Shown piece by piece: positions 3,045 through 7,939 of a stretch of DNA of 64,000 nt. The notes under the pieces were generated by a model that saw nothing but the letters and a program-made list of their open reading frames with translations, did not search any database and was not told where the DNA came from. Every line of letters begins with the position of its first letter. The first letter of the stretch is position 1. The translations under genes were made by a program, and so were the position numbers. Source of the DNA: Brevundimonas sp. (GTDB lineage Bacteria > Pseudomonadota > Alphaproteobacteria > Caulobacterales > Caulobacteraceae); the NCBI RefSeq assembly GCF_029945885.1, contig NZ_JAQSDK010000033.1, forward strand, positions 38,822-102,821. Direction: 5' to 3'.

Positions 3045-4142
<1,098 letters not shown>

Positions 4143-4841: not shown

Positions 4842-5162
4842 TCAGACCGGCTCCACCACCACGGCGGTGCCATAGGCCAGGACCTCGGTGATGCCGTCCA
4901 TGATCTCGTTGGCGTCATAGCGCATGGCCAGGATGGCATTGGCCCCCTGTTCCCGGGCGTGGGTGATCAGATGGTCCAGCGCCTCCTGCCGGGCCGTCTC
5001 GGCCAGGGTGACGTAGATCGACAGCTTGCCGCCGAACACCGACTGGATCGCCCCGCCCAGATTGCCGACGATGCTGCGCGAGCGCACGGTGATGCCGCGT
5101 ACCAGCCCGACCTGTCGCACGATGCGATAGCCGGCGAGGTCGTTGGTGGTTGCCACGATCAT
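4842..5162 (-). CDS. YbjQ/UPF0145 family protein
   Basis: MIVATTNDLAGYRI...GANAILAMRYD...EVLAYGTAV signature. Confidence 0.92.
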   Translation of the reverse strand: MIVATTNDLAGYRIVRQVGLVRGITVRSRSIVGNLGGAIQSVFGGKLSIYVTLAETARQEALDHLITHAREQGANAILAMRYDANEIMDGITEVLAYGTAVVVEPV

Positions 5163-5179: not shown

Positions 5180-5707
5180 TTAGCGCCGTTTCAGGACGCG
5201 GAAGGTGAAGGCGTGGTCGTCCTTCTCGCCGGGCTCGTGGCGCTCGGAGGCGACCTCCTCGAAGGCGGATTCGTCGAAGGGCGGGAACAGGGCGTCGCCT
5301 TCGGGCTCGGCCTCGACCTCGGTGATATACAGGGTCTTCGCCCGCCCCAGCGTCGCCGCGAACAGGGCGGTGCCGCCGATCACGCAGATCTCGTCGACCT
5401 CATCCTCGGCCCCGTGCTCGCGGGCGATGTCCAGGGCCTCGTCCAGGGTGGTGCAGACCAGGGCCCCGCGCGACTTGCCGTCGGCCTCATAGCCCTCGTC
5501 GCGGGTCAGGACGATGTTGAGCCGGCCGGGCAGGGGCCGCAGCGGCAGGCTCTCCCAGGTGTTGCGACCCATGATGCAGGGCTTGCCGACGGTGATGGCC
5601 TTGAACCGCTGCAGGTCCGAGCGGAGCTTCCACGGCAGGTCACCGTCGCGGCCGATCACCCCGTTGCGACCGCGGGCAACGACGAGGGCGAGGGTGGGGA
5701 TGGGCAT
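5180..5707 (-). CDS. folA: Dihydrofolate reductase
   Basis: NGVIGRDGDLPW, IMGRNTWESL, RPLPGRLNIVLTR, VIGG, GDALFP motifs. Confidence 0.97.
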   Translation of the reverse strand: MPIPTLALVVARGRNGVIGRDGDLPWKLRSDLQRFKAITVGKPCIMGRNTWESLPLRPLPGRLNIVLTRDEGYEADGKSRGALVCTTLDEALDIAREHGAEDEVDEICVIGGTALFAATLGRAKTLYITEVEAEPEGDALFPPFDESAFEEVASERHEPGEKDDHAFTFRVLKRR

Positions 5708-6028
5708 TCAGCGCGGCTCCAGCCAGTGCAGCCATTTGCGCTGCATCGCGGTCTCGAGATCGATGCCCGCGCGGTCGCAGTATAGCAGCAACATCCCCAG
5801 CACGTCCGCCGCCTCGTCGCCGAGCGCCGATGCATCCGGCGTGCCGCGCGCCCGGCCGGTCAGGCGCAGATGCTCGGCGGTCAGCTCGCCCAGCTCCTCC
5901 TGCAGCTTCAGCAGGGCCCAGTCGCGGTCGCGGTCGATATTGTGCTCGGCGGCGTAGAGGTCGGAGATGCGCAGGACGTCGGCCGTCAACCCGGCCAGGG
6001 ACAGCGCGCGTTTGCCGTCCGTCATCAC
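5708..6028 (-). CDS. MazG-like all-alpha NTP pyrophosphatase
   Basis: KLQEELGEL...GDEAADV metal-binding pattern; overlaps the thyA stop and abuts the folA start. Confidence 0.8.
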
Positions 6029-6894
6029 ACCGCGACCGCGGCCTTGATGTGCGGCCAGGGGGCATAGTCGCTGAGCACGAAATCGGCGGGTTCATAGGCG
6101 AACAGGTCGTCGTGCGGGGTGAGGGTCATGACCGGCAGGGGCAGGGGCTGGCGCGTCAGCTGCAGCTCGGCCTGTTCGACGTGGTTCAGATACAGGTGGG
6201 CGTCGCCGAAGGTATGGACGAACTCGCCCGGCTCCAGACCGCACACCTGGGCCACCATCAGGGTCAGCAAAGCGTAGGAGGCGATGTTGAACGGCACGCC
6301 CAGGAAGACGTCGGCGCTGCGCTGGTACAGCTGGCAGCTCAGCTTTCCGTCAGCGACAAAGAACTGGAACAGACAGTGGCAGGGCGGCAGGGCCATGTCG
6401 TCGATGTCGCCCGGGTTCCAGGCGGACACGATGTGGCGACGGCTGTTGGGATTGGTCTTCAGGCCTTCGACCAGTCGCGTGATCTGGTCGATCGTCTCGC
6501 CGTTCGGCGTCGCCCACGAGCGCCACTGTTTGCCATAGACGGGGCCGAGGTCGCCGCTCGCGTCGGCCCATTCGTTCCAGATCGAACAGCCGTTCTCCTG
6601 CAGCCAGGCAATGTTGGTGTCGCCGCGCAGGAACCACAGCAGTTCGACGAGGATCGAGCGCAGGTGCAGCTTCTTGGTGGTCAGCAGCGGAAAGCCCCGC
6701 GCCAGGTCGAAACGGATCTGGCGGCCAAACACCCCCAGGGTCCCGGTGCCGGTCCGGTCGTCGCGCCTGACCCCGTTGTCGAGGATGTCGCGCAGCAGGT
6801 TCAGATACTGGAATTCGGGATGATCCGCCGACGCGGCCGGAACCGCCCCGGTGCGGGTCTGCAGGTCAGCGATCTGGGCCAGGGCGTTCATCAC
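6025..6894 (-). CDS. thyA: Thymidylate synthase
   Basis: [41 protein letters not shown] motifs. Confidence 0.98.
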
Positions 6895-6950: not shown

Positions 6951-7493
6951 TCAGCCGCCGAAACCGCCGCCGTCGAGGAAAGCCTGTTCCTCCGGCGTGG
7001 TTTCCCGCCCGAGGGCGGCGTTGCGATGCGGGAATCGGCCGAAGCGGACGATGATGTCGCGATGGATACGGCCCCATTTTTCGCTGTCGGCGTCACCGGC
7101 GACCAGGGCCAGATAGCGGTCCTGATCCTCCAGCCGCTCGGAATGTTCGAACGGCAGCAGCAGGAAATTGCGCAGGGCCGGGGCGACCGCGTCATGGTGA
7201 CCGCGCGCGACCGCCGCATTGGCCAGGCTGAGGGCCAGCGGGTCGGTGGCGAAGGCGTGGCCGGTGTCGCGGAACACATTGCGCGGAAACTGGTCCAGCA
7301 GGATCAGCAGGGCCAGGGCCCCGTCCGGCGTCGCCATCCAGTCGTCCAGCTCGCGACGGGCCGCGGCGAAATGGGCGGTTTCGAAACGCTGCCGGAATTC
7401 GGCGTCGAACGCGTCATCCTTGGCGAACCATTTGCCGGGTCCGGCCTGCTGCCAGAAGGTGACGACGGTTTCGGGGGGGATGGCGCTGATCAT
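6951..7493 (-). CDS. DUF924 family protein
   Basis: WFAKDDAFD...LDQFPRNVFR...PFEHSE...IIVRFGRFPHRN pattern; start may be 7493 or 7529. Confidence 0.85.
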   Translation of the reverse strand: MISAIPPETVVTFWQQAGPGKWFAKDDAFDAEFRQRFETAHFAAARRELDDWMATPDGALALLILLDQFPRNVFRDTGHAFATDPLALSLANAAVARGHHDAVAPALRNFLLLPFEHSERLEDQDRYLALVAGDADSEKWGRIHRDIIVRFGRFPHRNAALGRETTPEEQAFLDGGGFGG

Positions 7494-7632
7494 GCCCTGA
7501 ACATGGGGGACCGCAGTGCGCGGGTCCATAGACGGGTCAGGCTGTGTGGCGGGGCGGTGAGGATTTTCAGGACGATGCGGTGGACAGAAGCCGGGCGCGT
7601 CCAAGGTCCGATCCGGGGGGAAACCGGATAAA

Positions 7633-7709
7633 TGGTCGGAGTGAGAGGATTCGAACCTCCGACCCCTGCCTCCCGAAGGCAGTGCTCTACCAGACTGAGC
7701 CACACTCCG
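7633..7709 (-). tRNA. tRNA-Pro(CGG)
   Basis: 77-nt cloverleaf CGGAGTG...CTGCC-TTCGGGA-GGCAG...GGTTCGAATCC...CCGACCA with encoded CCA. Confidence 0.97.
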
Positions 7710-7865: not shown

Positions 7866-7939
7866 TGGGGAATGGTGTAATGGTAACACAGCGGTTTTTG
7901 GTACCGTCGTTCAAGGTTCGAGTCCTTGTTCCCCAGCCA
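7866..7939 (+). tRNA. tRNA-Gln(TTG)
   Basis: 74-nt cloverleaf TGGGGAA...anticodon loop TTTTGGT...GGTTCGAGTCC...CCCCAGCCA. Confidence 0.97.

Follow-up and report, generated by a model that had tools for sequence, protein, structure and literature searches.

A MazG-like pyrophosphohydrolase gene coupled between thyA and folA in Brevundimonas and other Caulobacteraceae

The window analyzed in this work, a stretch of 64,000 nucleotides from Brevundimonas sp., carries on its minus strand a small gene placed between two genes of thymidylate metabolism. The first of these, thyA (6894..6025), encodes a thymidylate synthase of 289 aa (PF00303, E 6.2e-122; NF002497 equivalog, 462.6 bits, above the cut-off). 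It is followed by an ORF encoding a 105-aa MazG-like all-alpha NTP pyrophosphohydrolase (6025..5708), and then by folA (5707..5180), which encodes a dihydrofolate reductase of 175 aa (PF00186, E 2.9e-51). A ybjQ-family gene (4842..5162, minus strand; PF01906, E 9.3e-31) is located 17 nt downstream of folA, and a gene of this family is also present 3' of folA in the relatives L003, L005, L007-L009 and L144; it is probably the last member of the thyA–ORF–folA transcription unit. A promoter scan returned no promoters, and a terminator scan returned one terminator-like site that was not above the shuffled controls.

Both junctions of the ORF are very tight. The thyA/ORF junction reads GCG GTG TGA TGA CGG on the minus strand, and the stop codon of thyA (TGA, 6027-6025) and the start codon of the ORF (ATG, 6025-6023) have one base in common, the A of the ATG being provided by the thyA stop (TGATG). 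The sequence-only reading, an earlier note made from the letters of this DNA, had described this overlap as ATGA; an overlap does exist, but its actual form is TGATG, the TGA of the literal ATGA being another stop in tandem with that of thyA. The ORF has an alternative start in the same frame, a GTG at 6028, which would generate a GTGA overlap. At the ORF/folA junction (CGC TGA ATG CCC, minus strand) the stop of the ORF (TGA, 5710-5708) lies directly against the folA ATG (5707-5705) with a spacer of 0 nt (TGAATG), just as the sequence-only reading had stated, and a GGAG is found 9 nt 5' of this ATG.

The 105-aa ORF is a genuine gene under selection, with a constraint like that of ThyA and FolA. 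A total of 1081 homologues were found at E<=1e-3, the nearest of which were all from Brevundimonas. When the three genes were compared with 74-80 Brevundimonas orthologues each, dN/dS was 0.226 for the ORF, 0.235 for ThyA and 0.275 for FolA, and the median identities were 81.8%, 81.7% and 75.4%, respectively. The AF2 model of the protein, built on a 21-sequence alignment, was all-helical and had a pLDDT of 92.8, with helices at residues 10-28, 34-55, 65-85 and 90-102. The existence of homologues, the low dN/dS and the confident AF2 model led us to conclude that this is a real gene and not a chance ORF in GC-rich DNA.

MazG, MazG-like, HisE and dimeric dUTPase proteins make up the all-alpha NTP pyrophosphohydrolase superfamily, in which the acidic metal-binding motifs EExxE and ExxD lie on the two long helices. 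Its hallmark is a conserved helical bundle, which bears the metal site and makes up the active site (PMC2954211). The ORF protein contains the motifs QEELGEL (E43, E44, E47) and DEAADV (E71, D74). They provide the putative first metal-binding motif, EExxE (codons E43-E44-L-G-E47, gag gag ctg ggc gag, 5889..5903, minus strand), and the putative second one, ExxD (codons E71-A-A-D74, gag gcg gcg gac, 5808..5819, minus strand), both read from the sequence and in agreement with the ExxE...ExxD pattern noticed earlier. Among 65 diverse members, E43, E44, E47, E71, Y24, K40 and K97 were invariant, D74 was conserved in at least 90%, and W36, R60, D89 and W98 were near-invariant; the EExxE motif was invariant in both alignments, A1 and A2. 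These motifs aligned with the EExGEL/ExxDV motifs of solved MazG proteins (5ie9, 2gta, 1vmg and 2q73).

Searches of Pfam, NCBIfam and the PDB with the single sequence gave sub-threshold matches only, and the significant ones came from homologue profiles. On its own, the ORF protein scored 17.7 bits with PF12643, against a gathering cut-off of 27, with no other Pfam match and no NCBIfam model matched; membership in the curated families PF12643 (MazG-like) or PF03819 (MazG) was rejected on account of this score. About two thirds of the members (41-43 of 65) match PF12643, PF03819 or PF01503, about equally and weakly (best E 6e-10). With the homologue profile A2, matches were obtained to 5ie9 (E 2.6e-8), 2gta (E 1.2e-7), 1vmg (E 9e-7), iMazG 2q73 (E 1.7e-6), RS21-C6/DCTPP1 2oie (E 2.6e-5) and phage MazZ (E 2e-3). 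Foldseek matched the AF2 model to MazG-type structures with a probability of 1.0, the top matches being DCTPP1 chains, and VIA-align gave Z values of 9.4-10.1 over 83-100 residues for DCTPP1, BcMazG 5ie9, SSO3215 1vmg, YpjD 2gta and MazZ 7ody. Lower Z values were obtained for HisE structures (8-8.9) and for DR2231 chains (7.0-7.2). These fold matches do not discriminate the substrate, as DCTPP1, BcMazG, SSO3215 and MazZ are tied at a Z of about 10.

Since both the helical bundle and the acidic metal-site motifs are present, the membership of the ORF protein in the all-alpha MazG-like NTP pyrophosphohydrolase superfamily can be considered established; the MazG-like pyrophosphatase proposed by the sequence-only reading is upheld by the conserved acidic motifs, by the fold and by the profile matches to small MazG proteins of solved structure. 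Within the superfamily the protein represents a separate, uncharacterized subfamily, with 264 clusters (50% identity) when the threshold is E<=1e-10 and 1208 when it is E<=1e-3.

An analysis of the distribution of this gene in a sampled set of Caulobacteraceae identified a homologue in 36 of 151 genomes and in 12 of 27 genera. It was present in 10 of the 11 Brevundimonas genomes sampled, excluding the window's own, and its presence within genera was patchy (g4 3/9, g12 1/10, g10 1/5). The 23 homologues of the family that reach ~50% identity, which come from at least nine genera, all adjoin thyA and/or folA; 22 of them are located directly after or near thyA, and in 18 folA comes next. Among the 12 non-Brevundimonas loci, the spacer from thyA to the ORF was <30 nt in all 11 that include thyA, and that from the ORF to folA was <60 nt in nine, a 4-nt overlap being frequent; one further locus has folA 557 nt downstream of the ORF. 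As for Brevundimonas, the order thyA > MazG-like > folA on one strand was found at 77 of 80 loci, taken from genomes of named species. Spacing was tight on both sides at only 22 of these 80 loci, the others containing unrelated inserts: next to folA, on the ORF side, a gene of aquaporin-Z type; on the thyA side of the ORF, a gene for a secreted protein of alpha/beta-hydrolase type; and assorted additional ORFs. As the thyA–folA interval of Brevundimonas accepts unrelated inserts, strict co-translation is dispensable.

Outside the family, homologues were scarce (8 of 401 Alphaproteobacteria and 18 of 401 Pseudomonadota sampled), and none of the non-Caulobacteraceae homologues in these two samples was found near thyA or folA. 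Thus thyA-ORF-folA is a conserved three-gene unit of a Caulobacteraceae sub-lineage and not a sporadic linkage, which was a point on which the sequence-only reading had made its proposal depend. In ORF-less genomes of the family thyA overlaps or abuts folA, as in L144 (a Brevundimonas), L146 and L147; the two genes are likewise joined in L148, from the unpublished genome G025, although the conclusion is independent of this locus. On the simplest account, the gene entered an ancestral thyA-folA operon once or a few times and was then retained, with looser spacing arising later in Brevundimonas and with some losses. In the tree of 125 sequences (109 columns), which was poorly resolved, the thyA-linked rows fell in two neighbouring groups, and a single origin of the thyA-linked copies is unproven by this tree.

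Relatives of the gene were found in other settings. The Asticcacaulis homologues (45-52% identity) form a separate clade (support 97 in the same tree) located upstream of nth, the gene for endonuclease III, at seven of seven loci, directly in five and with one gene between in two; in the Asticcacaulis locus L026 the homologue overlaps the nth start (nth TIGR01083, 250 bits). In a Phaeobacter-type clade the homologue comes after ruvB at three of three loci. The Rhizobium homologue is flanked by genes for a D-Ala-D-Ala carboxypeptidase (dacC) and a GNAT protein, that of the Aminobacter plasmid pSR4 is cargo between Tn3 transposases, and that of a Rhodococcus plasmid has unrelated gene surroundings, the contexts beyond Pseudomonadota being based on few plasmid records. 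A search for homologues in phages gave none at E<=1e-3. Three independent contexts therefore touch DNA-precursor or DNA-repair genes and the remainder looks mobile or random; the nth- and ruvB-linked copies, which belong to separate clades, could have other substrates.

The complement of nucleotide enzymes bears directly on what the protein might do. The genome encodes a trimeric Dut (PF00692, 110 bits, C4:67928-68326) and a long-form dCTP deaminase Dcd (PF06559, 245 bits), the two genes whose presence the sequence-only reading had singled out as worth checking, which implies that the canonical dCTP -> dUTP -> dUMP route is complete; a tandem-domain MazG is encoded elsewhere. Dut was found in 144 of 151 Caulobacteraceae genomes (116 of the 118 of good quality), independently of the MazG-like gene. 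A dCMP deaminase was not found in the genome, the PF00383 matches corresponding only to TadA and to a RibD-like ORF, and so the product of a dCTPase could not directly feed ThyA. The ORF was discarded as a trimeric dUTPase, as the protein is all-alpha and the Dut of this genome is found at another locus, and also as a stand-in for a missing Dut or Dcd; the route dCTP -> dCMP -> dUMP was discarded for want of the deaminase. With Dut and Dcd present, Dut family-wide and no dCMP deaminase found, the MazG-like gene is neither a replacement of Dut or Dcd nor a required source of dUMP. With regard to folate, HPPK was found, so the de novo pathway is present, and no NudB above the cut-off was detected in the genome, the best match reaching 26.5 bits where 103 are required.

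Together, these data led us to propose that the protein is a sanitizer of deoxypyrimidine triphosphates, co-expressed with the dTMP cycle and acting as a second line beside Dut, a proposal that draws on superfamily chemistry and gene context and to which we assign an even chance. The protein would be a single-domain all-alpha enzyme catalyzing the putative reaction NTP -> NMP + PPi, with the metal presumably bound by E43/E44/E47 and E71/D74, and, by analogy with DCTPP1, BcMazG and SSO3215, two or four subunits would be expected to build the active site together. The gene would have been inserted into a directly coupled thyA-folA operon in an ancestor of Brevundimonas and of several other Caulobacteraceae genera, and because its translation is coupled stop-start to both thyA and folA, the dose of the enzyme would track the dTMP cycle. 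The substrate would be a deoxypyrimidine triphosphate that is dangerous or wasteful while the thymidylate cycle runs, the candidates being dUTP or an oxidized or 5-substituted dUTP or dCTP, and the enzyme would act as a guard or backup beside the canonical Dut and not as the main supply of dUMP. Pool sanitation by the putative enzyme is plausible, and the nth and ruvB neighbours of its relatives fit sanitation better than dUMP supply. Against this proposal, the fold matches leave the substrate undiscriminated, the dUTP-specific DR2231 scoring lower; the Brevundimonas interval tolerates inserts, with close spacing at both junctions in only 22 of 80 loci; only 36 of 151 family genomes carry the gene, and it is rare beyond them; and the unrelated contexts in Rhizobium and Aminobacter imply that the thyA/folA site could be historical.

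Another idea is that the gene is a hitch-hiker: a house-cleaning NTP pyrophosphatase of a generic kind, without a functional tie to dTMP synthesis, would have entered a permissive site between thyA and folA a single time and been inherited there ever since. The aquaporin, the alpha/beta-hydrolase and the other unrelated genes of the Brevundimonas interval, the unrelated surroundings of members elsewhere, including the Tn3 transposases of pSR4, and the patchy presence within genera are all in its favour. However, the gene has been retained in at least nine genera, with stop-start overlaps with both neighbours in most non-Brevundimonas loci, its constraint equals in strength that of ThyA and FolA, and despite the inserts it is still found between thyA and folA at 77 of 80 loci; we consider this explanation possible but rather unlikely. 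A supply of dUMP to ThyA by a dUTPase, or by a dCTPase feeding dUMP, in a three-gene dTMP module was suggested by the sequence-only reading. All-alpha NTP-PPases include dUTPases (DR2231 and the dimeric dUTPases) and dCTPases, the best fold matches are DCTPP1 chains, and the gene is co-translated with thyA, but the trimeric Dut and Dcd are already encoded in the genome, Dut is near-universal in the family with or without the MazG-like gene, a dCMP deaminase was not found (the PF00383 matches being TadA and the RibD-like ORF), DR2231 comes out behind the remaining MazG proteins in VIA-align, and most relatives have thyA-folA without the gene. Our data thus do not sustain that claim, and such a supply role seems improbable.

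The proximity to folA also admits a non-orthologous dihydroneopterin-triphosphate pyrophosphatase (DHNTPase) fulfilling the missing FolQ/NudB step. In most bacteria the DHNTPase gene is reportedly missing, and unrelated phosphohydrolases are found in clusters with folate genes (PMC1971073); the conversion of a triphosphate to a monophosphate and PPi fits this chemistry, as does the finding of HPPK with no NudB above the cut-off. This explanation nevertheless seems very unlikely: the gene occurs in only 36 of 151 family genomes, even though folate is presumably made in all 151, the thyA-folA pair is a unit of the dTMP cycle and not a pterin-branch cluster, the sister clades adjoin nth and ruvB and not folate genes, and a MazG-type DHNTPase was not reported in the literature searched. 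Similarly, we see only a slim chance that the protein represents either a third DHNTPase solution, after the Nudix FolQ/NudB and the HDIG FolQ2, recruited beside folA, or a physical partner of ThyA and DHFR in a thymidylate metabolon. Finally, in NCBI and UniRef the protein is named "phosphoribosyl-ATP pyrophosphohydrolase" or plain "pyrophosphatase", and the former name would make it HisE, in line with the weak PF01503 matches (41 of 65 members) and the Z values of the HisE structures. This name is doubtful, because the proper PRA-PH match of the genome is located elsewhere (71.5 bits, C13:97958-98212), and we regard it as a mis-annotation; a genome search with PF01503 at E<=0.001 retrieved this C13 locus and the tandem MazG and not the window ORF, on which basis the HisE identity was rejected. 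Moreover, there is no his-gene context and most relatives lack the gene, so that a HisE function is hardly credible.

Small MazG-like enzymes are widespread and their known substrates are few. The gene contexts described here (thyA/folA, endonuclease III and ruvB) are leads on one uncharacterized subfamily of ~264 clusters at 50% identity, and the propagated annotation "phosphoribosyl-ATP pyrophosphohydrolase" is corrected. If the sanitizer proposed above removes dUTP or oxidized pyrimidine dNTPs, it would represent a second protective layer against the incorporation of uracil or damaged bases, tied to the dTMP cycle, and, if true, this would bear on how these bacteria undergo thymineless death and tolerate antifolates.

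A directly coupled thyA-folA operon is a common bacterial arrangement. The flanking genes of the Brevundimonas locus and their order are alike, and the difference is that a third, translationally coupled gene intervenes. Literature searches on the thyA–MazG-like–folA arrangement returned only phage genome papers; this setting is lineage-specific and well conserved, and no earlier description of it was found in the literature searched. Regarding the protein itself, DR2231, the MazG-like dUTPase of Deinococcus (5hva, 5i0m), and the dimeric dUTPases (PF08761) share its superfamily and fold; by whole-fold score, however, DR2231 (Z 7.0-7.2) lies under the other MazG proteins, and the host genome of the ORF already has a trimeric Dut. 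With the mammalian dCTP pyrophosphatase 1 (DCTPP1/RS21-C6; 2oie, 6sqw, 7mu5) the ORF protein has in common a single MazG-like helical domain of ~100 residues and the same EExxE...ExxD metal site, DCTPP1 being the top match in Foldseek and VIA-align (Z 9.2-10.1, 21-28% identity; profile E 2.6e-5), with a high rmsd (about 5 Å) in this whole-fold comparison. In contrast to DCTPP1, the ORF is bacterial and operonic, and no dCMP deaminase that could use dCMP was found in its genome. The integron-encoded iMazG of Vibrio DAT722 (2q73, 2q5z) and phage MazZ (7ody), both small MazG-like enzymes that stand alone and travel as mobile cargo, also match (E 1.7e-6; Z 8.8-9.4), and one member of the subfamily is likewise transposon/plasmid cargo, whereas the ORF is fixed in a core-metabolism operon and none of its homologues was found in phages (E<=1e-3). 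The best profile matches of the ORF family are BcMazG 5ie9 and B. subtilis YpjD 2gta (E 2.6e-8 and 1.2e-7), which are of similar length and superimpose on the model with Z values of 9.9 and 9.7, respectively, and an rmsd of 2.5-2.6 Å over 86-90 residues. Their identity to the ORF protein is only about 23% and their gene context differs, and with respect to them the ORF subfamily has conserved residues of its own, namely Y24, W36, the G-R-x-R loop (R58/R60) and K97-W98.

The thyA-MazG-like-folA interval is an insertion hot spot in Brevundimonas, where the genes inserted among the three vary by species and the gene order is retained. The inserts comprise an aquaporin-Z-like gene, a secreted alpha/beta-hydrolase-like gene and further unrelated ORFs, as exemplified by loci L053 (4397-5095), L069 (5247-5918), L110 (4417-5091), L062 (~3130-3996), L051 (3324-4022) and L064 (3495-4004). 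In many relatives the unit is preceded by a DUF924 gene, before thyA, and followed by ybjQ, after folA. The DUF924 ORF of the window, as listed (6951-7703, minus strand), overlaps the tRNA-Pro(CGG) gene (7633-7709, minus strand); since its Pfam match runs only from residue 80 onward, the true start lies further in than listed. A tRNA-Gln(TTG) gene is found at 7866-7939 on the plus strand.

Other members of the MazG-like subfamily occupy different neighborhoods. The Asticcacaulis copies form a paralogous clade within the same subfamily, with nth, encoding endonuclease III, located downstream in 7/7 loci (L025-L031) and directly so in five of these; in L026 the MazG-like gene (1456-1812) overlaps the start of nth (1805-2443). 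In all three loci of Phaeobacter-type Rhodobacteraceae (L137, L138 and L139) ruvB is followed by an adjacent MazG-like member on the same strand (L137: ruvB, 1826-2860; MazG-like, 1495-1860). Plasmid pSR4 of Aminobacter sp. SR38 carries a copy annotated as "hypothetical protein" (L153:3980-4333; 51.5% identity), which is flanked by two Tn3-family transposase/recombinase pairs and adjoined by a group II intron RT, implying that the subfamily is occasionally mobile cargo.

Two cases point to possible rearrangements. In the metagenomic representative P0123 (109 aa), the N-terminal ~35 residues resemble a DHFR fragment (GRKTFQSLPGGALPGRTNIVLT) and are joined to the C-terminal two-thirds of the MazG-like protein; P0123 may stem from a gene rearrangement or a chimera in a relative of L018/L019. 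Locus L018 of genome G007 shows, upstream of the MazG-like gene, no more of ThyA than its final ~90 residues (1809-2075), so that this genome may carry a truncated or rearranged thyA.

In public records the window protein (5708-6025) is named "phosphoribosyl-ATP pyrophosphohydrolase". As the same genome contains a separate and far better match to this enzyme (PRA-PH, HisE) at C13:97958-98212, this naming appears to be an annotation error passed on from record to record.
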